A DNA stretch of 40,000 nt from Spartinivicinus ruber. Lineage in GTDB: Bacteria; Pseudomonadota; Gammaproteobacteria; Pseudomonadales; Zooshikellaceae. The notes beneath the pieces are model-generated. The model saw only the letters and a program-made list of their open reading frames with translations. It was not told the origin of the DNA and made no database searches. Each line of letters begins with the position of its first letter. The first letter of the stretch is position 1. The DNA lies in contig NZ_CP048878.1 of NCBI RefSeq assembly GCF_011009015.1, positions 2,656,354-2,696,353 on the forward strand. Direction: 5' to 3'. The translations under genes were made by a program, and so were the position numbers. Shown one piece after another: positions 4,580 to 39,866 of the stretch.

Positions 4580-4704
4580 TTGTTCCTCTTATAAATAAAA
4601 CAGTGACTATGCCAGTTTATAGCGTAATGGATGCTTGAAAAGCAAATTATCCGCATTTAGGTAACATATATCCATTTCTTGAGAACTCTCCTTTAATAGA
4701 AACC

Positions 4705-4911
4705 ATGTCATTTACTGCAACTGATTTAGATGCGATTAACGAAGCCATTGCCGGTGGTGAGTTACGGGTTAAATTTAAAGACCGTGAAGTGGAATACCGC
4801 AGTATGGATGAATTAATCAAAGCCCGTCGGTTAATCCAGCGAGCCTTGGCCAGCAACCAAAAAAGCCAGGCGTTTAAAGGCTCTCGCACTTGGGTAGACA
4901 GAGGTCTGTAA
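4705..4911 (+). CDS. Head-tail joining protein, lambda gpW-like
   Basis: 68 aa lying between terminase and portal. LDAINEAIAGGELRVKFKDREVEYRSMDELIKARRLI fits the gpW pattern. Confidence 0.75.
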   Translation: MSFTATDLDAINEAIAGGELRVKFKDREVEYRSMDELIKARRLIQRALASNQKSQAFKGSRTWVDRGL

Positions 4912-21592: not shown

Positions 21593-21773
21593 TACGGTAG
21601 CTGATTTACTATACCGGCATTTAGGGCAAGATAATGACGAATTAGAGAACGCTTTTTATCAACTCAATCCAGAAATAACACAACTCACTTATATCTTACC
21701 CGCCGGTATTCCCCTCACTTTACCCACCCCTCAACCGATAAAACCAAAGCCAGTTATACAATTATGGGATTAG
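21561..21773 (+). CDS. Tail protein, P2 gpX-like
   Basis: About 68-70 aa. VTTLAGDTVADLLYRHLG fits the gpX N-terminus. Confidence 0.75.
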   Translation: MLMRVTTLAGDTVADLLYRHLGQDNDELENAFYQLNPEITQLTYILPAGIPLTLPTPQPIKPKPVIQLWD

Positions 21774-22774
21774 ATTATCGCGTATATCCAACTATGACGG
21801 GTGCGCATGCCAACATTATTAATCAACGGCTCATCTCCTGGGAATTAACCGATGCGGCGGGTCATCAGTCTGACCAATTAAAACTAGTCGTCGATGCGGA
21901 AGGATTACCTGGCCTACCCAAAGAAGGTGAAAGAATAGGGTTAATACTGAATTATCAAGGTGTTCCTTATGATAAAGGCGAGTTTTTAATTACCCGGATT
22001 AACGCCAAATTATTTCCGATGGAAATAACCATAGTTGCAACAGCGGCACCGTTTCAGGTGAAAGATGACAGTGCGTTTAAGAAAAGACGGTCACAGTCCT
22101 ATGAGCAATATACACTCGGTGTGTTATTTGAAAATATCGTAAAAAAACACGGTTTTTTACCTCGCGTCGATCCAGCGTTAGCTAATATTAAAGTAAGTCA
22201 TGTCGATCAAACCGACGAAACGGATATGTCGTTTATTACCCGTTTAGCCAGGCAGTATGATGCAGTCGCTAAGCCTGTCAACCAGCTGTATATTCTGGCT
22301 AAAAAAGGACAGCTAAAAAGCATATCGGGTAAACAGTTATTGACTGTTAAAGTTGGTTTGCCTGCCAATAACCAGCCGACAAATCATAATTTTATTAATG
22401 CACATGCCACTTTACCGAGTCGAGGTAAATATAATGGTGTGGTCACTCTCTGGTGGGATGGAAAAGCCGCTAAGGAACGAGAAGTGAAAATAGGCAAACC
22501 TGCCTATAAAAAACTACGACACCTGTTTGACAGTGAGGCTAAGGCCAGAGAAATAGGCCAAAGTCAGCTAAGAAAAGTGGGTCGTAAAGGTGTGAATATT
22601 TCCTTAGAAATACCAGCGAATCCGTTGTTAGTAGCGGAAGGATTGATCGAATTAGATGGGAGTTTTCCGGGTCATATGCAAGGTAAGTGGTCAATAGAGC
22701 GGGTGATGTATAGAGGTAATAAGTCGATGGGTTGTAGGTGTTCGGTGAGTGCGGGGCAACCCAGTAATAGATAA
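21764..22774 (+). CDS. Tail/late control protein, P2 gpD-like
   Basis: 336 aa and the last gene of the tail module. MSFITRLARQYDAVAKP is gpD-like. Confidence 0.85.
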   Translation: MGLDYRVYPTMTGAHANIINQRLISWELTDAAGHQSDQLKLVVDAEGLPGLPKEGERIGLILNYQGVPYDKGEFLITRINAKLFPMEITIVATAAPFQVKDDSAFKKRRSQSYEQYTLGVLFENIVKKHGFLPRVDPALANIKVSHVDQTDETDMSFITRLARQYDAVAKPVNQLYILAKKGQLKSISGKQLLTVKVGLPANNQPTNHNFINAHATLPSRGKYNGVVTLWWDGKAAKEREVKIGKPAYKKLRHLFDSEAKAREIGQSQLRKVGRKGVNISLEIPANPLLVAEGLIELDGSFPGHMQGKWSIERVMYRGNKSMGCRCSVSAGQPSNR

Positions 22775-22806
22775 TGATCAATTAATCGTTGGGTAAGGAA
22801 AGCCAA

Positions 22807-23292
22807 ATGATAAGATCTTTAGAAAAAATTACATTATCAGACCTAAAAAAATTGTATCAACTAGCTTCTGAAGATATGAGGGCTTTTTTTTAAACGAAAT
22901 CCAAGATATAAAAGCTCGTATTTTGGCAATGAAAGTTTAGTTGCGCTATGTCAGGGAACAGCATTGCATTACATTGATAGTAAAAACGGTGTTAAAGATT
23001 TTGATATATGGTTCTTTTTCCAGAAGCTGGAATCAATTTGCCTTGTCGTCGTAGAGGTGTAGTAGATTTTGGCCAATCGAAATTTGGAAAGCACCCAGAT
23101 GTAACAGAATATGAGGGTAGAACTGTTGATGTTCTAATGCGTTCAGATAAAGCATTCAATAACACTACTGCTGAATCAGGGATTGCTAATTACTTATCAA
23201 AGCCAAGAACTAAAACCGCTAGATTATTAGCACAAAAGGCGGTAATTGGTCTATATCCAGAAAATATTTTTGGTAAAGTGATGTGGCAGTAA
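22807..23292 (+). pseudogene. Gene interrupted by two compensating homopolymer frameshifts (possible nucleotidyltransferase fold)
   Basis: Frame 1 (22807-22890) stops after a T8 run. Frame 2 (22892-23019) reads KRNPRYKSSYFGNESLVALCQGTALHYIDSKNGVKDFDIWFF. Frame 1 resumes after the T5 run (23015-23019) and runs to 23292. Confidence 0.5.
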
Positions 23293-23486
23293 CTTTTAAT
23301 AAATAGTAGACAATAAAGGCAACAAAAATATTGGCCTGTTAAATCTAAATTACAGCGTAAAGGGCATTTAAATAAAAAAATACTGTTTAGTAATATGTGA
23401 AAGTAAGTCATTAGTATAACAAATGATTGTTTATTGATCTGCAATCCTATATTTAGTGATTTAAAATTTATTTACGAGTATTTATT

Positions 23487-24206
23487 ATGACACAATGGCA
23501 TTATGCAGTTAACGGAGAACAAATAGGCCCTGTTAGCATTGATGATATTAAAGTCGCTGTTAATGCAGGTAAAATAACTACTTCGACGAAAGTATGGAAT
23601 GGTAAAGGGGATTGGAAACCTGCTAAGGAAACACGGTTATTTGACATTTTAAAATCAGCAGATCCAGCAATTCCTCCACCTCTAGCTTCTGAGGATGTAG
23701 CTAATAACTTCATTTGGATATTGATAGTAGTTCCAATTCTAGGAGTTACTATTGATTTTATTATTGGTACAGTTTTGATTTTTCCATCATTTATCGCCAA
23801 TACTATTTTATGTATAATGGACATAAGAAAGTTGAAGGCAGCGGGTTACATTGCGCCAAATCATTGGACGGTTTTTATTGTACCTGTTTATATATGGAAA
23901 CGTGCAACATTACTAAATCATAAAAGGAACTACTTTTATAGTTGGATAGCTTCTTTTTTCTTGTCAATATTCCTTGCTATTAGTGGTGCTAGATTAATTA
24001 TAGAAGAAGCTGCCTGTCCTATAGTCACAGATATAATCAAATCACAATTATATAGTTCAGCAAAATGTATGGGTGTGAGTATAAATAAAGAAGTAACAAC
24101 TGGTTTTTACAAAGCAACTGCAACTTTAGATAATGGGTATGATATTAATATTACCATTGAAGAAAAAGACAATGGGATGATTTACATACGAATTCCTAAC
24201 CAGTAA
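23487..24206 (+). CDS. GYF_2 (DUF4339)-domain membrane protein
   Basis: The N-terminus WHYAVNGEQIGPVSIDDIKVAVNAGKITTSTKVWNGKGDWKPAKE is the GYF_2 pattern. Three to four hydrophobic helices and a small C-domain follow. Confidence 0.65.
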   Translation: MTQWHYAVNGEQIGPVSIDDIKVAVNAGKITTSTKVWNGKGDWKPAKETRLFDILKSADPAIPPPLASEDVANNFIWILIVVPILGVTIDFIIGTVLIFPSFIANTILCIMDIRKLKAAGYIAPNHWTVFIVPVYIWKRATLLNHKRNYFYSWIASFFLSIFLAISGARLIIEEAACPIVTDIIKSQLYSSAKCMGVSINKEVTTGFYKATATLDNGYDINITIEEKDNGMIYIRIPNQ

Positions 24207-24259
24207 TAATGTGAGTTTAGTACAGGATAAAAGTAACAAACGGATCAGATGCTAGATAT

Positions 24260-24760
24260 ATGGATCTACTTAGTTGGATCAAGGCACCAAGAGAAGTTGT
24301 ATGGCCTTTAATAATCGTTAGCTGCTTACTGCTATGGGGGCCCGGATGGTTTGTACAAGGTTTGGGACTTGAAAGTTTCATTGATGAGTATAGAAAGTGG
24401 CTTGGAGTAGTATTCTTATTTTTTCTGATCGTAGGGATTCAACCAGCTATACCATCTGCATATAAAAAAATCATAAAGATGATCGACACACGTAAAAGGT
24501 TAAACAAAGCAACTGAGGAGATATCAAATCTTACTCCAAAAGAAAAAGAAATTTTAAGATATTATATTATCAATAATATCAGGACACAAGATCTAAGTAT
24601 TCAAGATGGTAATGTAAATATTTTAATTTCAAAGGGCTTCTTAATTTTGGCATCAAGTGTCAGTTATGGAGGCATGAAGGGTAGTTTTACTTTTCCAGTA
24701 AATATAACTGACTGGACATGGAACTACATTAGAAAGAATCCAAATGTGTTGGAGGATTAG
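24260..24760 (+). CDS. Two-TM membrane protein, SieB-like (superinfection exclusion candidate)
   Basis: Two N-terminal TM helices are followed by LTPKEKEILRYYI...DGNVNILISKGFL. This resembles the SieB-family pattern as I recall it; not searched. Confidence 0.5.
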   Translation: MDLLSWIKAPREVVWPLIIVSCLLLWGPGWFVQGLGLESFIDEYRKWLGVVFLFFLIVGIQPAIPSAYKKIIKMIDTRKRLNKATEEISNLTPKEKEILRYYIINNIRTQDLSIQDGNVNILISKGFLILASSVSYGGMKGSFTFPVNITDWTWNYIRKNPNVLED

Positions 24761-24858
24761 GTAGTTAATACTATAAAGTCGGATGAAATGAATACCATCA
24801 GTGTGTGGGAAAAAACTATAAACACTATAAATGTAGTATTCATCAATCACTGTTATTA

Positions 24859-24917
24859 CCCTGAACTACCGATTTTTTAGTATATCACGTCATAGTGACG
24901 TTCATTAGTAGTTAGGA
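24859..24917 (+). other. attC-like recombination site (attC-1)
   Basis: CCCTGAAC ... ACGTCAtagTGACGT ... GTTAGGA. The arms CCT(G)AACTAC and GTAGTTAGG pair with one bulged G. The left arm is longer than canonical. Confidence 0.6.
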
Positions 24918-24940
24918 CTAGCATAAGCACAGATATAAAA

Positions 24941-25276
24941 GTGTTGCTTGAGCACTTAATATCAGACGAATGGGTTTTGGTTGATGTTGACCCTATTTAT
25001 TCTTCTGATAGAAACTCGAAAAGGCGAGAGGCTTTATACGAGCTTAAGCATGCTGAGTTGACTAGCAATGTCAGCAAAGGGGCTAAGTATTGGTTTGAAG
25101 GTGATGACGCTCTAGATTTTGTTGCTGCCTTAAGTATCTTGGAGGCTTGTGCTCTTTGGCATAGAACGGAGTTAAATTCGAATCAGCTTGAAATGAATTT
25201 ACAGGGCCAACTAACAACATATTTTGACTTATGGGAACCTGATTTTGAAAAGTGGAGGGTGATCGTTGCAATTTAG
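24941..25276 (+). CDS. Cassette ORF, hypothetical acidic 111-aa protein
   Basis: It is the only ORF in cassette 24912-25348. It has a GTG start and a weak SD. Confidence 0.45.
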   Translation: MLLEHLISDEWVLVDVDPIYSSDRNSKRREALYELKHAELTSNVSKGAKYWFEGDDALDFVAALSILEACALWHRTELNSNQLEMNLQGQLTTYFDLWEPDFEKWRVIVAI

Positions 25277-25284
25277 TCAACCCA

Positions 25285-25354
25285 GTCCTAACAAAGCGCT
25301 GCTAGGGAAAAACCTACGCTGTGCTTCGGTTTTCCCCAGAGCACGGCGTTAGGC
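25285..25354 (+). other. attC site (attC-a)
   Basis: R'' GTCCTAAC, 5-nt spacer, L'' GCTGCTAGG, stem GGGAAAAACC/GGTTTTCCCC, L' CCAGAGC, 5-nt spacer, R' GTTAGGC. Confidence 0.8.
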
Positions 25355-25376
25355 TTCAAAAAGGAGGTTATCAGCA

Positions 25377-26051
25377 TTGTTTAACCTACTTATTTCAGCA
25401 AACCCGGAGAGTTGGGATTCACCTCATTGGGAAATCGAGCGAGCTAGGGCAGTTGTTGAATATACTGCTGATGAAATCAGCGAGCGGTATAAATTCTTCG
25501 ATGAAAAAGCAATTCGGGAATTAAAAAGCTTTCCCTGCTTATTCGTCATAGAGAACGAATATAAAGAATCTCGAATTGGATATATCACAGATATTAGGGT
25601 TCGGCAGAATACCGTCGTAGTAGATTTTGAGTTTGATCCAATCCTCCCTTTCTTGCCGATTGGATCAATAGAAAACCTAAGAGCAGATATCGACCTAGGT
25701 CGTTGGGAATTGTCTCGAACTCATTGGGCTGTAAAAGATGAAGCTATTTTTGATATTTTGCTCAAGCACGGCCTAATTACCCTACAGCAGTTAAATGCAT
25801 CGCAAGCATTAAAAGAGCCACCGCCACCACCTATAGTTCCGCCAGCAACTGCTGACGGTTCGGTTCCATTCAACACATCACAAGTATTCATTGTGCATGG
25901 CCATGACGAAATCGCTAAATTAGAGATAGCCGAGTTCATCGAAAGCCTAGGCCTGGAACCTATTATTCTTCATATGCAAGCTAGTTCGGGGCGCACAATA
26001 ATCGAAAAGATCGAACATTACTCCAATGTTGGGTTTGGTGTCGTACTTTAC
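25377..26051 (+). pseudogene. TIR-like (COG4271/PF10137-type) protein, 5' part, cut by IS3-family insertion
   Basis: TTG start with AAGGAGG SD. An uncharacterised N-domain is followed by a PPPPP linker, then VFIVHGHDEIAKLEIAEFIESLGLEPIILH...GFGVVLY, which is interrupted. Confidence 0.8.
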
Positions 26052-26107
26052 CCCTCTCTGTCAGGCTAGTTGTCGTTTTTATTCACTGAGATGACGACAG
26101 ATAACTG

Positions 26108-26590
26108 ATGGCTAAATATACCAAACAGCAAAAAGAAAATATCTTAAAGCTATTGCTCCCACCCGAAAATAAATCAGTCCCAGTGGTACACAAAATGACT
26201 GGCATTCCTCAGTCAACCCTGCATACTTGGAAAACCAAAGTGCGAAGTCAATCTGCCAACATGCCGAAAGAAACATCAAATCAAAGCTGGTCATCAGAAC
26301 AAAGGCTTAATGTGATCATTGAGACAGCGGCCTTATCTCAAGCAGAGCTAGCAGCCTATTGCCGAAAAAAAGGGTTGTATGTTGAGCAAGTTGAGCAGTG
26401 GAAACAGGCATTTATTCAGCCAGAGCAACCCTCCCAGGAGCTAAAGAAAAGCTTGCAAGTGGAAAAGCAGCGGTGCCAACAACTTGAAAAAGAGCTAAAG
26501 CGAAAAGAAAAAGCACTGGCCGAAGCCGCGGCCCTGTTAGTCCTTCAAAAAAAAGCTCAGTCAATCTGGGGACCGGACGAGGAAGCCTAA
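26108..26590 (+). CDS. IS3-family transposase OrfA (HTH + leucine-zipper-like)
   Basis: 160 aa with an HTH (MTGIPQSTLHTWKTK) and a coiled-coil C-terminus. Confidence 0.85.
   Translation: MAKYTKQQKENILKLLLPPENKSVPVVHKMTGIPQSTLHTWKTKVRSQSANMPKETSNQSWSSEQRLNVIIETAALSQAELAAYCRKKGLYVEQVEQWKQAFIQPEQPSQELKKSLQVEKQRCQQLEKELKRKEKALAEAAALLVLQKKAQSIWGPDEEA
26547..26554 (+). promoter_or_regulatory. IS3 programmed -1 frameshift site (A8, A_AAA_AAA)
   Basis: The OrfA frame reads CAA AAA AAA GCT. OrfB lies in the -1 frame and is open across the site. Confidence 0.7.
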
Positions 26591-27633
26591 CGTCGTATGC
26601 GGATAGGCAACAAACAGTTCAGTTAATTGGGGAAGCCACAACTGCAGGGGCTCGGCAATTTAAGGCCTGTGAAGTATTAGGGTTAACCCCGCGCACTTAT
26701 CAACGGTGGCAGCAAGGCGGTGAGCTACAACCGGATGGCCGCACCACTGCACAGCGTCCATTGCCGCCTAATAAGCTGCCTCCCAATGTTCATCAACAGA
26801 TGCGAGAAACGCTGAATTCACCGGAGTTTGCTGACCTCCCACCTTCTCAGATTGTGCCTAAATTAGCAGATCAAGGTGAGTATATTGCCAGTGAAGCCAG
26901 CTTTTATCGGCTCATGCGGGCAGAAGGGTTATCAACCCATCGAGGGAAGACCCAATCTCGTCAACCCAAACCGAAAACCACCCACACGGCGACAGGCCCT
27001 AATCAACTTTGGTGCTGGGATATCACTTGGTTGCCAGGTCCCGTCACCGGCATCTTTTTTTACCTGTATTTGATCCTTGATGTTTTCAGCCGCAAGGTGG
27101 TTGGCTGGGAGGTGCACGATTGTGAGCGTAGTAGCCTAGCGGCAGACTTAATACAGAAAGCCTTCTGGCGGGAAAATCTCCATAAAATTCACCAGCAGCC
27201 CCTGATATTACATTCAGATAATGGGAGTCCAATGAAGGGAAGCGCTTTACAAGTCAAACTCGCTGAACTTGGTATTGAGCCTTCTTATAGTCGACCGCGA
27301 GTTAGCAATGACAATGCTTATGCAGAGTCCATATTTAAGACCACTAAATACCGACCAGATTTCCCTCACCAAGGGTTTACCTCATTAGAAAGCGCTCAAC
27401 GGTGGGTTGATCAATTTGTTCATTGGTATAACCATGAGCATCAGCATAGTGGATTAAAGTTTGTAACACCGGTACAACGCCATACAGGTGAAGACCTAGT
27501 TATTTTAAGCCGGCGGAAACAGGTTTATGAGCAAGCTAAAGCAGCTTCCCCTAACCGATGGAGTGGGAATATACGAAACTGGGAGTTGGCAGATGAAGTC
27601 CACTTAAACCCTGAGAGAAATCAAACTCGTTAA
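26554..27633 (+). CDS. IS3-family transposase OrfB (DDE/rve core), made as OrfAB fusion by -1 frameshift
   Basis: The -1 frame is open from the A8 run. It contains an HTH (ACEVLGLTPRTYQRW), WCWDITWL, HSDNGSPM and SRPRVSNDNAYAES motifs. Confidence 0.85.
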   Translation, partial: SSVNLGTGRGSLTSYADRQQTVQLIGEATTAGARQFKACEVLGLTPRTYQRWQQGGELQPDGRTTAQRPLPPNKLPPNVHQQMRETLNSPEFADLPPSQIVPKLADQGEYIASEASFYRLMRAEGLSTHRGKTQSRQPKPKTTHTATGPNQLWCWDITWLPGPVTGIFFYLYLILDVFSRKVVGWEVHDCERSSLAADLIQKAFWRENLHKIHQQPLILHSDNGSPMKGSALQVKLAELGIEPSYSRPRVSNDNAYAESIFKTTKYRPDFPHQGFTSLESAQRWVDQFVHWYNHEHQHSGLKFVTPVQRHTGEDLVILSRRKQVYEQAKAASPNRWSGNIRNWELADEVHLNPERNQTR

Positions 27634-27847
27634 TATCCATTTAAAACTGTGCAACTCCCCTCTTTAATTGAAGCTGCTGAGGATGGATGCTTTGCATCGC
27701 AAGGCGTCCACCAGAAGGAGCAATGGGTGTTGTCTGTGTTATTAATAATTAGCCCTAAATTGATTATTAATATTTATTATGCCTCACGTTTTGAGATAGC
27801 TCGATGAAGATAAGAAGATAACACGACAACTACGTTGACAAACACCG

Positions 27848-28097
27848 TTACACGCCCTGCGATGTCGGCTCTAAGTTTGGTGCTTTGAACGGCAACTATC
27901 GAGCGCGCCAAAATGTCGTATTTGAACACGGTTATTTAATTGGGAAACTAAGTCGTTCAAGAGTGACTGCGGTAGTTAAAGGCCCGGTCGAAACACCAAA
28001 CGATATTAGTGGGGTCGTTTACATTGCGCTAGACGAGAAAGGCAATTGGAAGAGTGAGCTTATAAAAGAGATGTGTAGTGCTGGTTATGTCGTATAA
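27848..28097 (+). pseudogene. TIR-like protein, 3' part
   Basis: In frame after the target duplication: TPCDVGSKFGALNGNYRARQNVVFEHGYLIGKLSRSRVTAVVKGPVETPNDISGVVYIALDEKGNW. This is the conserved core of TIR-like PF10137 proteins. Confidence 0.8.
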
Positions 28098-28177
28098 GCC
28101 TAACAATGCCGTAAACTTGGACGCATTTTTCGTTCGTTGCGCTCACTACAAATGCGCCGGTACGGCTGGCGTTATGA
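28098..28177 (+). other. attC site (attC-b)
   Basis: R'' GCCTAAC directly after the stop codon, L'' CCGTA.., L' ..TACGG, spacer CTGGC, R' GTTATGA. Confidence 0.8.
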
Positions 28178-28192
28178 CTCAAGGAGGACGAT

Positions 28193-28795
28193 TTGGCAGA
28201 GTTAGAAAATAGCAAAATAAAAGAGTTACTGCGAAGAACTAAGCTGACAACAAAGTCTCGGTACAAGGCTAGCGAGAGATTTGCAGCACACCAAAAGGTA
28301 TCGCAGTGGACTGTAGCTTTTATTTCTGCAGCTTTAATCTTTATACCTCTCTTCCAAGCCTATGGTGTAAAATTAACCATTCCTGAGCAACTATTGAATA
28401 GCTTTCAATCAGTTTTAGCTGTTATGGTGCTTGTTTATTCCTTATTGCTTGGCCAGGAAAATTTTGTATCTCGAGCGGAAGCGATGCATAGAAATGGAGT
28501 GGAGTTAGGAAGATTTGCTAGAAAGTTAAGGGGGATTCCTGATGGCTATAGTAAGTATGATGAGTTGGTAGAAGAGTACTATGGAATATTAGAAAAATAC
28601 GAAAATCACAAGCCTGTGGATTATTTATTTACTCGCCTTCACCAAAAACCCGAAAAGTTTTTAGAGTGGCCTGGATATTTTTGGCTTTGGCTTAGAGCTC
28701 AATTTTTCATGTGGCTTGGCTACACTCATTACATTGCCGCATGGTGTTTTGTTGGATACATTTTCTATTATATTTTTACAAATATTGCGTCATAA
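28193..28795 (+). CDS. SLATT-like multi-TM membrane protein
   Basis: TTG start with AAGGAGG SD. The N-terminal TKSRYKASERFAAHQK helix, two TM helices and the AEAMHRNGVELGRFARKL helix match my recollection of SLATT family layouts. There is also an aromatic-rich C-terminal TM region. Confidence 0.5.
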   Translation: MAELENSKIKELLRRTKLTTKSRYKASERFAAHQKVSQWTVAFISAALIFIPLFQAYGVKLTIPEQLLNSFQSVLAVMVLVYSLLLGQENFVSRAEAMHRNGVELGRFARKLRGIPDGYSKYDELVEEYYGILEKYENHKPVDYLFTRLHQKPEKFLEWPGYFWLWLRAQFFMWLGYTHYIAAWCFVGYIFYYIFTNIAS

Positions 28796-28830
28796 CAAGG
28801 GCCATCAAAACTGACAAATAAGTGTAGGCT
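28789..28830 (+). other. Degenerate/truncated attC remnant (attC-c)
   Basis: GTCATAAC is the exact complement of the cassette start TTATGAC at 28172. The right box is GTGTAGGCT rather than GTTAGGCT. The site is only about 40 bp with no clear L boxes. Confidence 0.35.
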
Positions 28831-28834
28831 ATAA

Positions 28835-29449
28835 ATGGAGTTTTCTAAATTGAACATAACATTTGGGATAGCTATAGGGGCAATAATAGCTGCTGTACTA
28901 AATATTATTGCGAACCATATAAGCAGAAGGGTAAATGAGAATGTCAAGAAAAAAACCTGTGTAAAAATACTGTTTGGAGAGCTTCTTAACGTTCTAAATC
29001 ATTATCAATTTTCGGGTATTCCCATTAGTCTAATAGACGGAGATGATAGAAACATTTCGGAAGTTATTAAGCGCATGGAGTTCGCCAAATACGGAGATTT
29101 TAAGGCAGTAAAAAATATAGAGCTATATGGTTTCCTTTCTGCTGTTCAAGTTCGCAATATTCACCAGCTATCACTAAAGATTCGAAATACAGACACTCTT
29201 ATAAAAAGCTATCTATCCTCAGAATTTGTAAATAATTCTGCAGCGACTCATGAAGAAATCAATCTAGTTCGTGAGATTGGCTCTCGAATGGATTACGTAT
29301 CAGATACCGCTGATCTTTTGTTATCTTATATTTCAGAACAGCACCCAGAATATAGTTCGTTATTTCAAGATACGAAGAATATCGAGAAGCCAAATTATGC
29401 GCTGTATCAGAAGCCTAATAAACAAAGGCAGCATCGCCTTGCGGGCTGA
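28835..29449 (+). CDS. Cassette ORF: N-terminally membrane-anchored 204-aa protein, unknown function
   Basis: One TM helix (ITFGIAIGAIIAAVLNIIA) followed by a predicted helical soluble domain. Confidence 0.6.
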   Translation: MEFSKLNITFGIAIGAIIAAVLNIIANHISRRVNENVKKKTCVKILFGELLNVLNHYQFSGIPISLIDGDDRNISEVIKRMEFAKYGDFKAVKNIELYGFLSAVQVRNIHQLSLKIRNTDTLIKSYLSSEFVNNSAATHEEINLVREIGSRMDYVSDTADLLLSYISEQHPEYSSLFQDTKNIEKPNYALYQKPNKQRQHRLAG

Positions 29450-29485
29450 ACGCGCTAATGCGCGCCGCTTCTTTGGTCGTTAACT
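29413..29485 (+). other. attC site (attC-d)
   Basis: R'' GCCTAAT, spacer AAACA, L'' AAGGCAGC (extrahelical G), L' GCTTCTT, spacer TGGTC, R' GTTAACT. The right half is homologous to that of attC-e (GCGCGCCGCTT..TTGG.CGTTA). Confidence 0.65.
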
Positions 29486-29498
29486 GCTCGGAGGAAAG

Positions 29499-30110
29499 AT
29501 GAGCGCTGTAGAAGTATTTTCTATAATTAAAGATGTTTTTCTTGCAGGAGCAGCAGGTACTACAGCATATGTAGCATATACTGGACTTGAAAAGTGGCAG
29601 AAGGAACTCCGAGGAAAAGCCAACTTTGAAGTTGCCAGAGAACTGATTAAGTCGGTCTACAAGTTAAGAGATGAGATTGGTTATTGTCGCTCTCCGTTTA
29701 TTTTTGCGGCGGAATTTCCTGACGGGTACAAAGGCTCACTAGGTAAGCATACAGCAGAGGAAGAAGGACAAGCATGGGCATATGTGTACTCTAAAAGATG
29801 GGAGCCTGTTGGCCAAGCAGTTCAGCATTTTGATGCTGCTGTGTTAGAAGCTGAGGCGCTTTGGGGTGTGAGCATTAAGGAAAAAGCTAAAGAGTTGCGC
29901 CAGTGTGTCCGTAGCCTTCAAGTAAATATTGAAGCCGTGATTGCAGATAAATATTCTGGTGGTGAAGATTTCAAAGACAAAGACTTTGCTAAAAAAGTAC
30001 GGTCTGCGGTTTCTGATACTAAATCCATAGAAAACGAATTAACCAATAAAATTGACGTTGCAATAGGTGGCCTAGAGTCAAAAATCAGGCCGCATCTATC
30101 GCGCAGCTAA
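29499..30110 (+). CDS. Cassette ORF: N-terminally membrane-anchored 203-aa protein, unknown function
   Basis: GGAGGAAAG SD. One TM helix (VFLAGAAGTTAYVAYTGL) followed by a helical domain. The architecture matches the preceding cassette ORF. Confidence 0.65.
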   Translation: MSAVEVFSIIKDVFLAGAAGTTAYVAYTGLEKWQKELRGKANFEVARELIKSVYKLRDEIGYCRSPFIFAAEFPDGYKGSLGKHTAEEEGQAWAYVYSKRWEPVGQAVQHFDAAVLEAEALWGVSIKEKAKELRQCVRSLQVNIEAVIADKYSGGEDFKDKDFAKKVRSAVSDTKSIENELTNKIDVAIGGLESKIRPHLSRS

Positions 30111-30165
30111 CAAGGTGCTCAAGCTAGGACGTGATACCGCGCGCCGCTTAGCTTGGCGTTAGCCT
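30106..30165 (+). other. attC site (attC-e), canonical 60-bp form
   Basis: R'' AGCTAAC, AAGGT, L'' GCTCAAGC (extrahelical C), loop, L' GCTTAGC, TTGGC, R' GTTAGCC. This is the same layout as attC(aadA7) recalled from memory. Confidence 0.85.
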
Positions 30166-30264
30166 AACAATAAACTCTTTTTTCTTGAAAATTTTTATAT
30201 TTTATCAGTCTACCTCAACTTGCAATGCCTTGTGAGTGTTTTTTCCCTCGTAGAAGGAGACTCT

Positions 30265-30790
30265 ATGTCTAAACCTATTTTTGTCTGGATGGGCGGCAAG
30301 CGCCGTTTAGCCAGGCACATCTTACCGTTATTTCCTGATCACACCTGCTAGGTTGAACCGTTCTGTGGTCAGCCGCATTATTTTTTATGAAGGAGCCGTC
30401 GAAAGCAGAGGTATTAAATGATATTTCGTCGGATGTGATTAACTTATTCCGGGTAGTGCAGCATTACTTAGAAGAATTTATCCGACAGTTTAAGAAGGCT
30501 TTGGTTAGCCGCCAGTTATTTGAGTGGGTAAAATAGTACCCCACCTGAAATGCTAACCGATATCCAACGAGCAGCACGGTTTTACTAGCTGCAGCAGCTG
30601 ATCTTTGGTGTTAAACTAACTGGCCGAACCTTTGGCACCACACTATTAAGGTTTAACTTAATCAGGCTAAAAGAAACCCTTTCACAAGCTCATTTGAGGC
30701 TAGCAAGGGTAACAATAGAGAACCTGGATTGGCAGCAATGTATTAAAACGCTACGACTGGGAACATGGAAGTTTAGAGCGCACTAGTGGG
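30265..30790 (+). pseudogene. Dam-type (D12 class) N6-adenine DNA methyltransferase pseudogene
   Basis: MSKPIFVWMGGKRRLARHILPLFPDHTC*VEPFCG, then a frameshift, then AALFFMKEPSKAEVLNDISSDVINLF..., then further stops and shifts (RAARFY*). The DPPY motif is absent. Confidence 0.75.
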
Positions 30791-32572: not shown

Positions 32573-32938
32573 ATGAAAAAAATGACTAATAAAACCAAGC
32601 AACAACGCTTTGCAGCAGTAAACAAGCTAATCAAAATCATTGCCACTTGTGGTCGGTGCATTTTCTCAGAAAATGCAGATAAACCGAATAACGTTGAAAA
32701 CCCTTTTATTGCATCCATGGAAATTGATGGGTGTGGAAAAGTGTGGTTTACCGATTCATACACCAGAAAATGTATTTACATCCTCTATGGCTATAGCTGG
32801 AGGTACTTTACCCATGGTGGAATAAAGCGTCTCGTTGAATTCTTCAGAAATCACATAACCAGAGGAGCCCAAATTAAATCAGACTGTTTTGATCTTGGGG
32901 AGATCGGCACCCATGGGAATACGGTAAGGATATACTGA
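32573..32938 (+). CDS. Hypothetical 121-aa protein
   Basis: ORF only. I prefer it over the overlapping antisense ORF 32515-32763, but without strong grounds. Confidence 0.4.
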   Translation: MKKMTNKTKQQRFAAVNKLIKIIATCGRCIFSENADKPNNVENPFIASMEIDGCGKVWFTDSYTRKCIYILYGYSWRYFTHGGIKRLVEFFRNHITRGAQIKSDCFDLGEIGTHGNTVRIY

Positions 32939-33505: not shown

Positions 33506-33701
33506 AAATAGGTATAGGCTCTCTTGTTTTAATTTAATTGGTTCTCTGATATGTGCTCTGAAAAATCAAGGTTTTAGTGTGCTTTTAATCTACCCACACA
33601 AATAAAAATTTTTTAAAGGTGACTGTTAATTAATTATCATTTTTTTGTTTTCTTAGAACGTATATTTATTTCGCGATTTAAGTTTGCACGAGAGAGTTTT
33701 C

Positions 33702-34832
33702 ATGAATACCATTAATCCTGTTTCTGTTACACAGCAAGTAACAAATTTAAATAATTTACCTGGTAGTGAATCTAGGAAAGTACAAAACCAAGTATCAAGT
33801 TTATCTGAATTAACTAGAAAAATTGGTGCTAGTGTTGCTGAAAGTATTCAAGATCAGCCACTTTCTAGAAAAAAACGCGGTATTCCACCTGATTGGCAAC
33901 CATCTCAACCTGAGCCAAAACCAGAAAAAAGTGATAATAGTTATGTTACTGTTGAACCAGTACCTTACGAACTAAGGTTTACATGGGGTGGTAGCTCAGC
34001 GGCAGAATATCTTGATGCTTTCGCTAGGCCTTGGTCAAATGCTGCAGAAATTGGTTCTAAATTTGTGAGCGCTGCAAGAGGCGACTCGATTCAGGAAGCT
34101 GATGCAAATTCTGCTAGTACAAAAGAGAAAGCTAAACCAGCAGATTCAATTATAACAGGGATTATTGGCTTTTTGGGTGGACCTTTTGGGAGAGGTTTTG
34201 CAGGACTCCAACAAATTGCTGGCCAAGCATCAGATACTTTAGAAACAGGCAAGCCACCTGAAATTCCAGTTGATCCACGAATCTTTGGTGGTGGTCCAAA
34301 CCTAGCTGCTGGAAGAAGACCAATTATTCCAAGAGAAGAAATTTCAGAGCCGACAATTACTCCTGAAAGTACACCTCGTGTTGAGGGTGAGCAACCGGTG
34401 GAAGTAGAAGAAGAACAAGTTAATGTTAGATGCAGAAGGACTTTAGGGGGAGAGTGTTCTCCTGGACCGTCAAGTAGCCAGGGAGCTGCTAATGTTCGTG
34501 AGACTGCTCGGGCTGATTATGAAAATGAATTTCCAATTAATAACCCTAAAGTAAAAAATACGACGGATAATCTTTTTTCGAAGACAGACCCTGCTCATGG
34601 AGGAGATACTACAGCTTCATCTGCAAGACAAGAGCTTGAAGAATCTCACTCAACTGCATTAGTACTCCATGATGGAAGTGCTCAAGCTAAACTATTTAAC
34701 TCTGAAGCTGTATCAAGACCTGACTCAGCTGGTGAAAGTGTAGACTTTGTAGGGAAGTTAAATTTGAATGGTGAAACAATAGAGGTAGGATTAGACCCCT
34801 TCCAGCCGCCTAATACCAATCCTGTTTATTAG
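33702..34832 (+). CDS. Low-complexity, probably disordered secreted/effector-like protein
   Basis: I prefer the ATG at 33702 (MNTINPVSVTQQVTNLNN...). It is S/T/N/P/E-rich with no TM helix or signal peptide. The last 5 codons are supplied by the IS630 end. Confidence 0.55.
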   Translation: MNTINPVSVTQQVTNLNNLPGSESRKVQNQVSSLSELTRKIGASVAESIQDQPLSRKKRGIPPDWQPSQPEPKPEKSDNSYVTVEPVPYELRFTWGGSSAAEYLDAFARPWSNAAEIGSKFVSAARGDSIQEADANSASTKEKAKPADSIITGIIGFLGGPFGRGFAGLQQIAGQASDTLETGKPPEIPVDPRIFGGGPNLAAGRRPIIPREEISEPTITPESTPRVEGEQPVEVEEEQVNVRCRRTLGGECSPGPSSSQGAANVRETARADYENEFPINNPKVKNTTDNLFSKTDPAHGGDTTASSARQELEESHSTALVLHDGSAQAKLFNSEAVSRPDSAGESVDFVGKLNLNGETIEVGLDPFQPPNTNPVY

Positions 34833-35904
34833 CTTGTTAAAACAGCCCAACATCTGGAGCACAAGCTTTTAATGTTATTTTTCTTATTCACAAATACATT
34901 CCATGCCTCACAACAAGACTCAACAATATCATTGAAATTTTTAAAACAACGATTTGCCAGTGAATCTTCTCTCAGTTTTTCCCATATCCGCTCTACCGGG
35001 TTAAGCTCTGGGGAAACGGGTGGTAAATTTAATAGCGTGATATTCGCAGGTATTTCTAGGCGATGAGTCGTATGCCATGCCGCTTGATCAACGATAACCA
35101 GTCCGTGTCTTCCCTTAGAAATGGCTTTTGAAATTTCTGTTAAGTGCAACCTCATTGCTTCTGTGTTAGCAATAGGTAATACAAGAGCCACTCCTCTATC
35201 TTTAGCAGGACACACAGCGCCAAAGAGATAAGCTGACTCAAACTGTTGTTGCTTTACCACTCGTGGACGCGTACCTTTCTCTGCCCAAATACGCGTACAG
35301 GTATTTTGCTGACCCACTCTGGCTTCATCTTGAAACCAAATATCAACTTTATCTGGAGAAACGCATGAGGGAAGTACTTTTAAGGCCTCTTTTTCAAAGT
35401 TTTTTTAAATGCTTGCTGTTTATCTGGGCGATGATTAGGATGTTTAGATCTTGATGTAATCCAAGAAAGTCCTGCTTTATGCAATACTTCATAAATACTA
35501 CTTAAGCTGTAGTCTATATTAAATTGTTCCAGCAGCAACTGTTGTATGTCTTTACCCTGAACTCTACCGCCTTGACGATGGTTTTGTAAGGTAATAACCG
35601 CTGCTTTAAATTCATTATATTGTGAAGGACAAAGAAACGGTTTTTTTCCTCTACCGGGTTGTTCATAAAGTCCTTCAAGGCCATCTCGTCTAAAACGGTT
35701 GAGCCAGTCCTGAATGGTATTGTTTGATTTCCTTAATGCTCGTGCTATTTCAGTTTGAGACCAACCTGCTTGTAAATGAGCCATCGCTAATAAGCGAAGC
35801 CGTGTTCTTGGATGTGGTTCTCTGTTCAGTAAGGCATCAAAGTCGTAGTCATACAATTCATCTGGAATAGAAGCAATCCTTGCCATTATTAAATTCCTAG
35901 TCAA
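34829..35904 (-). CDS. IS630-family transposase (two frames joined at an A7 run)
   Basis: The N-part has an HTH (35904-35380). The C-part has WFQDEARVGQQ...QQQFESAYLFGAVCP...LNPVERIWEKLR. The -1 frame is open from the A7 run and gives ...QQAFKKNFEKEALKVLP.... Confidence 0.8.
35400..35406 (-). promoter_or_regulatory. A7 slippage site joining the IS630 transposase frames
   Basis: The minus strand reads TTT AAA AAA ACT. A -1 shift yields AAA AAC TTT GAA = KNFE, continuing the typical AFKKNF motif. Confidence 0.55.
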
Positions 35905-36755: not shown

Positions 36756-38027
36756 TCAGTATAGCGAGACTTTCGGCAGCTCATCCCAGTTAGTAAAAAA
36801 GTGAGGTGACAGGTGACGTCTTACTAACTTCCACGAAGGATTAATACCATTACTAGCTAAGAATAGCCCTTTAGGATAACGTCTATTGATGTCATCAACT
36901 ACTTGCATTAAGCGTTTAGATTTTGGTGTATCTAGCATGGGGGTGAACAAGTCTTGTTGTATAACTTGTTGCTCACAAATCTCACTCAACATGACTCCAG
37001 CCTTAGCATAGGCATGACCAGACCTGAAAATATGGTGAAGCCCTTGGGTTGCCATTTCTACCAGTAGTCGTGTATCAGAAGTTGGGTGGGGGAGCTGCAC
37101 CAAAGCGCTATTACGGTATTGTGGTACATCCGCAAAGGGGCTAGTACGAATAGAAACAGTAATGTTATGTGCAGATGATCCCTGGGCTCGTAGCTTTTCT
37201 GCCGCTCGTGCTGTATAGGTGCTAATCGCTTCTCTCAGATGCTCCAGCTTATAAAGGCGTTGTGAAAACGAACGACTACAGATGATTTGTTGCTTAGCGG
37301 GAGCTTCGTTTTCTAAATCAATACAAGACTCTCCATTAAGCTCTCGAACAGTACGCTCTAAAACAACACTATAGCGTTGTCGGATTAACGTGGGCGGCAT
37401 ACAGGCCAGGTCATAAGCCGTTTTCATCCCCATATTAGTAAGTGACTTATAAAGGCGGTGCCCAACCCCCCATATTTCCTCCAATGGCATGAGCTTGAGC
37501 AGTTCTTCTTGAATGGTTGAATCAGTTGCGTCAAATACACCACCCGTTTCAGGGTGCTGCTTAGCATAATGATTTGCAAGTTTGGCTAGCGTTTTTGTTT
37601 TAGCAATACCAATACTGACAGGTATGCCAACTTGCTTCATGACTTGTTTTTTAATCATTACAGAGTAATCAGAGATAGAATCAATAAACTTGCAATGAGT
37701 TAGCTCCATGAACATTTCATCAATAGAGTAACGCTCGGTGTCAGGTACGAATGACTCAAGTATCTGCATGACTCGCTCAGAGATAACCCCGTAATTTTCA
37801 TAGTTTGATGAAAATAGTTGAATATTATGTTGTTTAATCAGGTGCATTACTTGAAAAACTGGTACACCCATTTTGATGCCTAGTTTTTTTACTTCATTTG
37901 ACCGCGCAACAATACAGCCATCTTGGTTTGATAAGACAGCTATTGGCTTATTTTCCAGGTCAGGCCGGAACAAACGTTCACAACTTGCATAAAAATTGTT
38001 GCAATCAACAATAGCGATTTTTTTCAT
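36756..38027 (-). CDS. umuC: DNA polymerase V catalytic subunit UmuC (Y-family)
   Basis: MKKIAIVDCNNFYASCERLFRPDL...SIDEMF... is the Y-family signature. ATGA overlap with the umuD stop. I prefer the start at 38027 over 38066. Confidence 0.9.
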   Translation of the reverse strand: MKKIAIVDCNNFYASCERLFRPDLENKPIAVLSNQDGCIVARSNEVKKLGIKMGVPVFQVMHLIKQHNIQLFSSNYENYGVISERVMQILESFVPDTERYSIDEMFMELTHCKFIDSISDYSVMIKKQVMKQVGIPVSIGIAKTKTLAKLANHYAKQHPETGGVFDATDSTIQEELLKLMPLEEIWGVGHRLYKSLTNMGMKTAYDLACMPPTLIRQRYSVVLERTVRELNGESCIDLENEAPAKQQIICSRSFSQRLYKLEHLREAISTYTARAAEKLRAQGSSAHNITVSIRTSPFADVPQYRNSALVQLPHPTSDTRLLVEMATQGLHHIFRSGHAYAKAGVMLSEICEQQVIQQDLFTPMLDTPKSKRLMQVVDDINRRYPKGLFLASNGINPSWKLVRRHLSPHFFTNWDELPKVSLY

Positions 38028-38461
38028 GGATAGCTTTTGTGAATAATATAAACAACAACACCCCAAATGATGCAGTCTTGCTCTTTAATCTCGATAGGAG
38101 AAAAATTGGGGTTCATAGGAACAAGCCAGCTCTGAGCATCTTTAATCTTTAATTGTTTGACGGTTAAGTCTCCATCCAGAGCAGCAATAACAATATTCCC
38201 TGACTTGGCTTCTATCGAGCGGTCTACAACAAGTAAGTCTCCTGGCTGAATACCTCCATTGGTCATAGAATAGCCCGATGCTTTGACAAAGAAGGTCGCA
38301 GCGGGGTGTTTGACCATGTAATCGTGAAGGTTAATCTCAGCTGTCACATAGTCAGATGCAGGGCTTGGAAAACCTGCCTCTACTGCCTCTAGATAGAGTG
38401 GAGCCGTTTGAAGGCTATCTAGCTCAAGCAGTTGGGCTCTATCAACTTGTTCTACGCGCAT
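38024..38461 (-). CDS. umuD: UmuD (LexA-like S24 self-cleaving protein)
   Basis: VEAGFPSPA (Ala-Gly cleavage site), the Ser (ASGYSM) / Lys (TVKQL) dyad, and a LexA box upstream. Confidence 0.9.
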   Translation of the reverse strand: MRVEQVDRAQLLELDSLQTAPLYLEAVEAGFPSPASDYVTAEINLHDYMVKHPAATFFVKASGYSMTNGGIQPGDLLVVDRSIEAKSGNIVIAALDGDLTVKQLKIKDAQSWLVPMNPNFSPIEIKEQDCIIWGVVVYIIHKSYP

Positions 38462-38738: not shown

Positions 38739-39866
38739 TTAGAATCCTGGGAGTCCAGATACAGGAGCTCTGCATTCAACAACTCCCTGGGAACATTTGA
38801 CTCGTGTCCAGTACCTAACCATTGATCGTTGGAATCTTAATTCGTATTTTGGTATTGAAAATAGCCGGGATTCTACATCAGGAGAGGGGTAAATTGATTT
38901 GTCATTAACTATTTCATCTTCAACTAATGACGTTGAGGAGGGAACATTGTTTGCGTACCACACAAAATTAGATATTTTAGCAATAACTTCTGGTTCCATT
39001 AGATAGTTTAAGAAGGCATGGGCAGTTTTAAGGTTATTGCTATTGCTTGGTATGGCGACAGCATCTATCCAACGAGTTGAGCCTTCCTCTGGGATTATGT
39101 ATTTTAACTCATAGCCTTTTTTCTCTTCCTCTGCATCAGAAATAGCCTGAAAGATATCACCTGAGTAACCGATGGTAATACATATTTTTCCATCTTTTAG
39201 TCGATCAATATATTCTTCAGAATCGAAGTACTTTATTGTCGGTGCTATTTTTCTTAGGTGTTTAGAGGCTAATACTATATCTGAACGTTCTTTTGATTGT
39301 CCTGACTTTCCTAAGTAGTTTAGAGTTAAAGGGAAGATTTCAATTTCACTATCTAAGTAAGAAATACCACATGATGATAGTTTTTCTGCAAATACAGGAT
39401 CAAATACAAGTTTCCAGGAGTTAGGAATATTATCTTGATTGAGAGTTTTCTTTACCTGATCAACATTGATACCTAGCCCTACTGTTCCCCAAAGATAGGG
39501 AAGTATATACTCGTTAGTTGAGTCATACTTTTTTAAATCTGCTATGGAAGTGTCGGAAAGTTTATCAATATTAGGTAGAAGGCTTTTATCAAGTTTGTAT
39601 AGTACCTTCCGCTCTATAAGAGCTGGTACATAATCAACTGGTGGAAAAACTACATCGTAAGCATCTTCTTTGGACTTAACCAAAAACTTTTGTCTAAAAC
39701 CATCGAGGTCATCAAAAGTATCGTATTTTATATCTACGTTGTGTTTTTTTCCAAAGTCTTGTAGCACTGAGTCGTCAATGTATGCAGACCAATTTAAGAT
39801 TCTAAAAGACTTAGCAAAGGAGACTTCTGAGAAGATAAGAATAAGAAAAGCAAGTAAATAGTACAT
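38739..39866 (-). CDS. Polyamine (spermidine/putrescine) ABC transporter periplasmic binding protein, PotD/PotF-like
   Basis: Signal peptide, then LNWSAYIDDSVLQDFGKKHNVDIKYDTFDD, GYSGDIFQA and IPEEGSTRWIDAVAIPSNSNN..AHAFLNYLMEPEV, all typical of PotD/PotF. Confidence 0.75.
   Translation of the reverse strand: MYYLLAFLILIFSEVSFAKSFRILNWSAYIDDSVLQDFGKKHNVDIKYDTFDDLDGFRQKFLVKSKEDAYDVVFPPVDYVPALIERKVLYKLDKSLLPNIDKLSDTSIADLKKYDSTNEYILPYLWGTVGLGINVDQVKKTLNQDNIPNSWKLVFDPVFAEKLSSCGISYLDSEIEIFPLTLNYLGKSGQSKERSDIVLASKHLRKIAPTIKYFDSEEYIDRLKDGKICITIGYSGDIFQAISDAEEEKKGYELKYIIPEEGSTRWIDAVAIPSNSNNLKTAHAFLNYLMEPEVIAKISNFVWYANNVPSSTSLVEDEIVNDKSIYPSPDVESRLFSIPKYELRFQRSMVRYWTRVKCSQGVVECRAPVSGLPGF

Follow-up and report, generated by a model that had tools for sequence, protein, structure and literature searches.

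Published screens have found anti-phage activity in 18% of the unknown-function integron cassettes of Vibrio cholerae (Darracq et al., bioRxiv 10.1101/2024.07.02.601686). Among unknown-function cassettes from mobile integrons the share was one third or more, and about one third of these cassettes encode transmembrane (TM) helices (Kieffer et al., bioRxiv 10.1101/2024.07.02.601719). Brigantia, from the V. cholerae superintegron, is an anti-phage cassette whose product has TM helices only (Darracq et al., bioRxiv 10.1101/2024.07.02.601686). Among the mobile-integron cassettes, Deva seems to prevent injection, and an octameric pore is predicted for BrcWGS21 (Kieffer et al., bioRxiv 10.1101/2024.07.02.601719). 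Here we analyze two consecutive open reading frames (ORFs) from Spartinivicinus ruber, ORF1 (28835-29449, + strand, 204 amino acids) and ORF2 (29499-30110, + strand, 203 amino acids). Coordinates refer to a 40,000-nucleotide stretch of contig NZ_CP048878.1 (positions 2,656,354 to 2,696,353), which we call the window. A preliminary description of the window had proposed both ORFs as candidate membrane-acting defence proteins within an array of single-gene cassettes, and it had cited the reported anti-phage richness of integron cassettes, with which the screens above agree. Like Brigantia, Deva and BrcWGS21, ORF1 and ORF2 are promoterless single-ORF cassettes bounded by attC sites and encode small membrane proteins without a recognizable domain, and cassettes of this type are present both inside and outside integrons. 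Compared by description, ORF1 and ORF2 differ from these proteins in having, beyond the TM helix, a large (~170 amino acids) conserved bundle that is predicted to be cytoplasmic. In kind, they are further membrane-protein cassettes of unknown function, a class already known to include defence genes.

Two other groups of described elements come close to this locus. Integrase-less attC clusters within phage DNA have precedent (Qi et al. 2023, PMC9892861), and the clusters without an integron integrase gene (intI) reported from temperate-phage DNA resemble ours in being a short run of attC-bounded cassettes in a marine gammaproteobacterium-like genome (Qi et al. 2023, PMC9892861; Neron et al. 2022, PMC9024848). 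The cluster in the window differs from them in occupying a defined variable slot, in its defence-type cargo of TIR and SLATT cassettes, and in its attC sites, which are partly decayed and not uniform in length or sequence. The second group comprises the exclusion and abortive-infection membrane proteins of prophages, such as SieB, which are likewise small inner-membrane proteins encoded by single genes in prophage accessory regions. A sieB gene lies in the same hotspot and on the same strand as ORF1 and ORF2. Neither protein, however, resembles SieB or any Pfam or PHROG exclusion family at the level of sequence or profile, and the ORF2 family, unlike the prophage exclusion proteins, is almost absent from sequenced phages.

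Both ORFs, with the peptides quoted for them in the preliminary description, were found in the ORF list and the raw sequence. Comparison with homologues indicates that they are intact, real coding genes under purifying selection. The ratio of nonsynonymous to synonymous substitution rates (dN/dS) is 0.11 for ORF1 against its homologue on metagenome contig L065 and 0.094 for ORF2 against its homologue in V. mediterranei (locus L066). A stop codon comes after the upstream ATG of the ORF1 homologue in L065, which places the family start at the position of TTG 28850 in the window. This codon, with GGAG ahead of it at 28837-28840, is probably the true start of ORF1. At its other end, ORF1 reads ~17 codons into its own attC because the ancestral stop codon has been lost in the window. 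ORF2 follows a 17-nucleotide (nt) cassette leader with a strong Shine-Dalgarno sequence (GGAGGAAAG).

The boundaries of the two genes and the comparison of their families and loci indicate that ORF1 and ORF2 are unrelated, independently mobile integron gene cassettes stacked by chance. We recognized attC sites by the arrangement R''(RYYYAAC)-L''...L'-R'(GTTRRRY) in an imperfect hairpin and accepted them only behind stop codons and with support from homologue boundaries. The attC of the ORF1 cassette spans 29413-29485 (+ strand), with an R'' box of GCCTAAT, mutated from GCCTAAC, and an R' box of GTTAACT. This site is degraded in the window and fails the fold filter. It is ~88% identical to the attC of L065, where the site is canonical. 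There, an ORF1 homologue with 87% identity precedes a textbook attC (GCCTAAC-AATCAAAGGCAGC...GCTGCTTTGGGC-GTTAGGT, -22.9 kcal/mol). In the alignment of the window with L065, similarity extends from a GT(T)AGGC box, 6-11 nt before the ATG, to the GTTA of attC, and the flanks on both sides are unrelated. This alignment identifies the GT(T)AGGC box as the left boundary of the ORF1 cassette, and the junction between the ORF1 and ORF2 cassettes lies at G|TT in 29479-29481.

The attC of the ORF2 cassette is a 60-nt site at 30105-30164 (+ strand, AGCTAAC...GTTAGCC) whose R'' box overlaps the stop codon. It forms a bottom-strand hairpin with paired ends at -11 to -12 kcal/mol. From GTTAACTGCTCGGAGGAAAGATG onward the window matches the V. 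mediterranei locus identically, and the sequences upstream of this point are unrelated. The arrangement GTTAAC-TGCT-GGAG...ATG is common to the window, L066 and three further loci (L009, L011 and L037), with unrelated sequence upstream, and the ORF2 leader recurs in a Campylobacterales metagenome-assembled genome (MAG), a Microbulbifer genome and a Smithellaceae MAG. ORF2 homologues of other taxa have the same stop-overlapping R'' together with an attC of their own, and several loci of the family carry complete attC hairpins that begin at the stop codon. We quantified these boundaries in 40 near-full-length ORF2-family loci. A GTTA[AG] box within 55 nt upstream was present in 15 of the 40 (5.8% expected by chance), TAA-C at the stop in 17, and both features in 11.

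The features that define an integron gene cassette were all found for the pair: an attC hairpin (for ORF1 that of its L065 homologue), G|TT boundaries, and a single promoterless ORF co-oriented with the array. Each cassette contains one ORF on the + strand behind a leader of 17-40 nt, and no sigma-70-like promoter site was found upstream of ORF1 or ORF2. We are highly confident in this cassette anatomy and in the membrane-protein anatomy set out below. A 33-nt repeat (D6) follows each of the two ORFs. We considered it as a terminator or regulatory repeat and rejected that assignment in favor of a better fit, the conserved L'/R' half of related attC sites. An automated attC scan that demanded at least six of seven complementary R''/R' positions missed a site in the array (28098-28177) and returned many false positives in phage genes.

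The two protein families are both undescribed and differ greatly in size. ORF1 belongs to a tiny family: a single-sequence search returned 11 relatives, and a profile search among 5.8 billion clusters returned 20 clusters. The ORF2 family is very large and unannotated, with at least 200 close relatives. Clustered at 50% identity, it comprises at least 3,393 representatives with E<=0.001, and 1,931 of these reach E<=1e-10. Nearly all of these representatives are ~200 amino acids long. The family reaches from Proteobacteria to Acidobacteriota, Chloroflexi and Patescibacteria, and ORF2 retains 50-87% identity across integrons, integrative and conjugative elements (ICEs), prophages and several bacterial classes. 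Eight longer members of the ORF2 family (240-386 amino acids) were checked for fused domains. None of the eight contained a Pfam domain, and the extra length probably reflects gene-call extensions.

The preliminary description had recognized no family for either protein and had reported that their sequences differ, and both statements stand. Profiles from Pfam, PADLOC, PHROGs and NCBIfam gave no credible match to ORF1 or ORF2, sequence profile searches of the PDB returned nothing under E 0.027, and neither the PDB nor BFVD provided a significant match. A housekeeping family was sought with sequence profiles and with Foldseek, and no confident match to one emerged. Profile-profile comparison of the two families (hhalign) gave a probability of 0.1%, and we rejected the possibility that ORF1 and ORF2 are diverged paralogues. 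Weak matches to Phage_TTP_13 (E 0.25), a TetR regulator (E 0.027), apolipophorin-III (E 0.55) and chemoreceptor four-helix-bundle (4HB) domains (E 0.4-1) were set aside as chance or generic bundle similarity.

The chemoreceptor and sensor-kinase 4HB domains (Tar, Tsr, 4HB_MCP) were the best structural neighbors, although non-significant, with Foldseek E values of 0.4-1 and TM-scores of 0.3-0.5 that reflect generic bundle similarity. The resemblance lies in a TM helix that runs unbroken into an antiparallel four-helix bundle. The chemoreceptor domains are located in the periplasm between a pair of TM helices and feed into a signalling module. In ORF1 and ORF2 there is a single TM helix, the bundle is predicted to be cytoplasmic, and an output domain is absent. 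We also compared the two proteins with SLATT proteins (PF18160 and relatives; SMODS and SLOG-associating 2TM effector), which are likewise predicted helical, membrane-inserted effectors of ~200 amino acids. The defined domain of SLATT proteins contains two TM helices, and the usual partner is a reverse transcriptase or a generator of nucleotide signals. By contrast, a single N-terminal helix and no partner were found for ORF1 and ORF2. They have no Pfam or PADLOC SLATT match at E<=1, although the neighboring SLATT gene scores 2e-50.

AlphaFold2 models built from the family alignments are confident and all-helical for ORF1 (pLDDT 85.1, pTM 0.72) and ORF2 (pLDDT 90.3, pTM 0.78). Each model begins with a very long N-terminal helix, residues 2-58 in ORF1 and 3-63 in ORF2, followed by a bundle of three or four further helices. 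This agrees with the helical domain that the preliminary description had placed behind the anchor. The ORF1 segment ITFGIAIGAIIAAVLNIIA is strongly hydrophobic (Kyte-Doolittle 2.44 in a 19-residue window), and its predicted TM helix covers approximately residues 8-28. The corresponding ORF2 helix (approximately residues 13-30) is conserved and moderately hydrophobic and leads into a four-helix bundle. Its segment is borderline (1.43, family median 1.65), and a nearly invariant K11-D12 pair lies inside it. On this basis a membrane anchor in ORF2 is probable, not certain. The hydropathy scan found one hydrophobic segment in each protein and no second one. The shared architecture claimed earlier therefore stands in part: each protein has one N-terminal helix followed by a helical bundle, but the ORF2 anchor is borderline and the hhalign result speaks against kinship.

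A basic stretch behind the helix was also confirmed. The mean number of lysine and arginine residues in the ORF1 family is 0.18 before the helix and 4.36 in the 15 residues after it; in the ORF2 family the values are 0.98 and 3.52. By the positive-inside rule, these counts predict an N-out/C-in topology, which places the bundle on the cytoplasmic side. ORF1 and ORF2 are thus predicted to be bitopic inner-membrane proteins with the N terminus outside and a cytoplasmic bundle, an assignment that hydropathy and charge give clearly for ORF1 and only marginally for ORF2.

The N-terminal helices are conserved as well as the rest of each protein (3.27 versus 3.19 bits in the ORF1 family, 3.09 versus 2.91 bits in the ORF2 family). 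Both present a face of small residues, G11-x3-G15-A16-x2-A19 in ORF1 (GxxxGAxxA) and A18-A19-x2-T22-A23-x2-A26-x2-G29 in ORF2 (AAxxTAxxAxxG). This combination points to specific helix packing rather than a passive anchor. Rather than simply anchor the proteins, the membrane helices probably mediate specific homo-oligomerization or docking to another membrane protein. Other conserved features are the invariant W33, E36, G39, F43, CRSPF...EFP, LEAEALWG and C-terminal RPHLSR of the ORF2 family, and the GELLN..HY and IRNTD motifs of the ORF1 family.

We then placed the two genes in their surroundings. The preliminary description had reported an array of single-gene cassettes, and five consecutive cassettes at 24.9-30.2 kb, each with an attC or a remnant of one, bear this out. 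In order, and all co-oriented, they encode a 111-amino-acid protein, a TIR protein split by an insertion sequence (IS), a SLATT_5 protein, ORF1 and ORF2. The array opens with a core-site box of the R' type (GTTAGGA, 24911-24917, + strand) ahead of cassette A, and no complete attC lies upstream of this box. Cassette A (24941-25354, + strand) consists of the 111-amino-acid ORF (24941-25276), which has no match in Pfam, PHROGs, NCBIfam or PADLOC, and an attC at 25286-25354 (TCCTAAC...GTTAGGC). With 69 nt, 27 spanning pairs and -15.6 kcal/mol, this is the best-preserved attC of the array.

Cassette B (25377-28177, + strand) contains the TIR gene in two parts, an N-terminal part at 25377-26069 and a C-terminal part at 27885-28097, followed by an attC at 28098-28177 (GCCTAAC...GTTATGA). 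Both halves match PDC-S35 (PADLOC) and CAP12-PCTIR_TIR (Pfam). The gene is inactivated, because an IS3-family element at ~26059-27840 splits it; the element has 21-nt terminal inverted repeats, orfA at 26108-26590 and orfB at 26761-27633. Cassette C (28193-28829, + strand) carries a SLATT_5 gene (28193-28795; Pfam SLATT_5, E 2.3e-50) and an attC remnant of ~40 nt at 28790-28829, from TCATAAC (28790-28796) to GT-AGGC (28824-28829). The earlier placement of ORF1 and ORF2 directly after TIR-like and SLATT-like cassettes is thus correct as to the identity of both genes, but the TIR gene is split by the IS3-family element. The array shows four signs of decay: the split TIR gene, the truncated SLATT attC, the mutated R'' of the ORF1 attC and the lost ORF1 stop codon.

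The claim of a chromosomal-integron setting was not supported. No tyrosine-recombinase ORF that could encode an integron integrase was found in or beside the array within the 40-kb window (the replicon is 6.36 Mb). Because intI is missing there, the array within the window represents an attC cluster with no integrase (CALIN), and it falls outside the definition of a complete integron, which has an adjacent intI with attI and a Pc promoter. It is a short, decaying cluster in a prophage cargo hotspot. The window from 1 to 22774 is a phage structural module with a gpA-type terminase, a tape measure gene and a gpD-like protein, and gpD-like, GYF and SieB genes precede the array. The gpD-like phage tail gene (21764-22774, + strand), which forms the left anchor of the hotspot, has a weak Pfam Phage_GPD match below the cut-off. 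A copy with 95% identity occurs on IMG/VR contig L074, where synteny breaks directly after the gene. The right anchor is a pseudogene of a dam D12-class N6-adenine methyltransferase (30265-30640, + strand), identified by alignment to the gene in the related IMG/VR phages L075 and L080. In the window it is reduced to short ORFs (28 and 49 amino acids) by stops or frameshifts, and the L075 orthologue is intact (252 amino acids, Pfam MethyltransfD12, E 9e-28).

The content between these anchors differs from phage to phage. In L075 and L080 the gap is ~154 nt (5183-5335 in L075), with the methyltransferase gene next. In L074 (9989-14018) it holds a different 4-kb cargo, a two-gene module for a ClpP/SDH-type protease and an 886-amino-acid protein that combines HSDR_N-like and S1 domains with a P-loop recognized in the sequence. 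In the window it measures 7.5 kb (22775-30264) and contains the GYF gene, the SieB gene and the five cassettes. These differences identify the gpD-dam interval as a variable prophage cargo hotspot, which the GYF gene, SieB and the cassettes fill in S. ruber. The SieB superinfection-exclusion gene (PF14163, 24260-24760, + strand, 166 amino acids) has no attC.

The company of SieB, TIR and SLATT genes in a prophage hotspot and the published cassette screens led us to a tentative reading, the likeliest of those considered, which we put a little short of an even chance: each of ORF1 and ORF2 may serve a single-gene defence or exclusion function. The reading draws on local context, in which SieB, TIR and SLATT genes are the immediate company of the array, and on published precedent. 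The NTPase and ATPase genes beside ORF1 homologues in L007 and L065, and the AbiV and FRG genes beside an ORF2 homologue in a Vibrio prophage, also count in its favor. Under this proposal, each gene on its own would confer phage resistance at the inner membrane. An infection cue sensed by the cytoplasmic bundle would drive the helices to assemble into a leak or pore and cause abortive infection. In another version, the protein would keep the phage genome from entering and thereby exclude superinfection. A broader form of the idea, which we offer with reserve as possible and clearly below an even chance, is that the large undescribed ORF2 family is a stand-alone membrane-acting anti-phage or exclusion protein. 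It would spread mainly as an integron cassette and act through small-residue TM-helix oligomerization under the control of the four-helix bundle. ORF1 would then be a second, rare and unrelated solution of the same design, and the gpD-dam slot a point at which phages collect defence cassettes.

Several observations weigh against a defence function. We examined 80 fetched loci for co-occurrence, 59 ORF2-family loci for recurrence and 56 non-redundant ORF2-family loci for their 150 nearest neighbors. The leading neighbors are generic mobile-element genes (helix-turn-helix regulators, integrases, toxins of toxin-antitoxin (TA) systems, transposases), and only ~5% of nearest neighbors match PADLOC. 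Defence genes therefore associate weakly with ORF2 homologues elsewhere, and guilt by association rests mostly on this locus and on one Vibrio prophage, in which AbiV and FRG genes adjoin an ORF2 homologue situated between the integrase and a cI-like repressor. Among 50,697 phage records the ORF2 family does not occur, and only five distant relatives were found in 2.9 million IMG/VR contigs. Some homologues in ICEs stand beside genes for the coupling protein of a type IV secretion system (T4SS), a relaxase or ArdC, which suits other roles, and others occur on two megaplasmids, with some copies in plasmid transfer regions. PADLOC-DB v2.0.0 contained no family matching either protein at E<=1, in a library that predates the integron-cassette systems described after 2023. 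Foldseek searches against the PDB (both models) and BFVD (ORF2) returned generic helical bundles, with best E values of 0.23 (ORF1, PDB), 0.42 (ORF2, PDB) and 0.086 (ORF2, BFVD). To these points are added the borderline hydropathy of the ORF2 anchor and the purely conjectural nature of oligomerization and pore formation. The cassettes may also be silent in this genome, as they lie without promoter or integrase in a decaying array.

The strongest alternative is that ORF1 and ORF2 are accessory membrane proteins with a non-defence role, such as envelope or stress adaptation, modulation of a host membrane complex or, in the case of ORF2, a part in mobile-element transfer (entry exclusion or establishment, for example), carried as ordinary cassettes. 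We regard this as a real possibility, still well under an even chance. The same screens that provide the precedent for defence found no anti-phage activity in 82% of V. cholerae cassettes and in about two thirds of the mobile-integron cassettes. The nearest neighbors of the ORF2 family are heterogeneous, with 116 Pfam families among the 150 and few defence genes, and in ICEs and plasmids certain copies have a T4SS coupling-protein, relaxase, ArdC or TraH gene as a neighbor. The sedentary integron of L006 holds an ORF1 homologue amid cassettes for transporters (EamA, LysE, AzlCD, MerC). Set against an accessory role are the absence of any housekeeping or transporter family match and an unusual local richness in defence genes (SieB, TIR, SLATT) within a prophage cargo hotspot. 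For entry exclusion in particular, such proteins are normally specific to one transfer system, whereas ORF2 is 50-87% identical across element types and has no conserved partner.

The conjugative copies also bear on a second alternative, in which ORF2 would serve mobile elements in anti-defence or establishment, be expressed early after transfer like leading-region genes, and not be a defence gene that protects the host. ORF2 copies lie by ArdC and relaxase/type IV coupling protein (T4CP) genes in a Parashewanella ICE (L001), between T4CP and TrwC in L004 and L005, and, in L067, within a series of small genes on one strand downstream of TraH. However, conjugative context accounts for only 3-4 of ~56 loci, and 38-43% of loci show cassette boundaries rather than transfer regions. 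To our knowledge, a membrane-anchored protein is also atypical of anti-restriction or anti-CRISPR factors. We consider this alternative improbable.

Small membrane proteins can be toxic, and a third alternative holds that ORF1 and ORF2 are membrane toxins that serve as addiction or stabilization modules for the array or the prophage and have no anti-phage role. TA toxins do occur among the neighbors of the ORF2 family, and TA modules are common in cassette arrays. Each cassette, however, holds a single ORF behind a 17-40 nt leader and no cognate antitoxin gene, and a conserved neighbor is lacking. Proteins of ~200 amino acids with a large conserved soluble domain are also unlike the small hydrophobic type I toxins, and the toxin alternative appears more doubtful still. 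Finally, the TIR gene, the two-TM SLATT gene and the two one-TM genes are co-directional with short gaps in a prophage hotspot and could form one multi-gene membrane system, as in the '2TM-1TM-TIR' of P2-like prophage hotspots, but this is very unlikely and largely refuted, given that each gene has its own attC or remnant, that in the 80 loci no ORF1 or ORF2 homologue accompanies TIR, SLATT or a homologue of the other ORF, that no PADLOC multi-gene-system model matches either protein, and that the TIR gene is inactivated by the IS.

Defence or exclusion by single genes would, if either protein confers phage resistance, add a compact, ~600 bp, single-gene membrane-acting system to the defence catalogue. 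If this held for ORF2, it would provide a function for thousands of 'hypothetical' proteins across many phyla. Without a phenotype, the two remain well-defined candidates among very many unknown-function cassettes. The computed results hold nothing surprising to a specialist, and ORF2 is a good, cheap experimental candidate. The locus shows integron cassettes, TIR and SLATT modules included, stockpiled in a prophage cargo hotspot, and it ties integrons to phage hotspots, two gene-shuffling systems that are usually studied apart.

The neighborhoods of the homologues provided further observations. A conserved partner gene for ORF2 was sought and rejected: no neighbor cluster occurred in more than 4 of the 59 loci. 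The ORF2 family stands alone and spreads largely as a cassette across phyla. In the Parashewanella ICE (4367-4903), an accessory peptide deformylase gene lies directly upstream of the ORF2 homologue; accessory deformylases on mobile elements are the topic of a recent paper (PMC12690207). ORF1 homologues adjoin an nSTAND-type NTPase gene in L007 and an AAA_15/AAA_21 ATPase gene in L065, and another is carried by a Vibrio campbellii plasmid. In the sedentary integron L006, a 145-nt direct repeat with 93% identity (5828-5972 and 6670-6816) flanks the ORF1 homologue instead of an attC of the V. cholerae repeat (VCR) type. A second repeat, a GGGGA...TCCCC hairpin, follows both the ORF1 homologue and the LysE gene (6596-6637 and 9012-9053).

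Other features of the hotspot and its flanks lie apart from the two cassettes. The two-gene module of L074 has a defence-like look, and no PADLOC model matched it. The protein encoded between gpD and the cassettes has a GYF_2 domain, 239 amino acids and a hydrophobic C-terminal half, and its gene lacks an attC. Together with SieB it forms a markedly AT-rich stretch (23487-24760, GC fraction 0.33). Scanning the window for Rfam families and tRNAs gave no hit. Downstream of the array, a 121-amino-acid ORF (32573-32938) matches two function-unassigned PHROGs (phrog_23101, E 2e-13). Near it lies a 382-amino-acid ORF (33684-34832) that has no match in Pfam, PHROGs or NCBIfam. An IS630-like transposase on the - strand is divided into a helix-turn-helix part (35380-35904) and a DDE_3 part (34829-35317), which represents either a programmed frameshift or a disrupted gene. 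Directly past the prophage-like region, a umuD-umuC pair (Peptidase_S24 and IMS polymerase) occupies 36756-38461 on the - strand. It is followed by a solute-binding-protein gene (38739-39866) that is probably part of the chromosomal flank.

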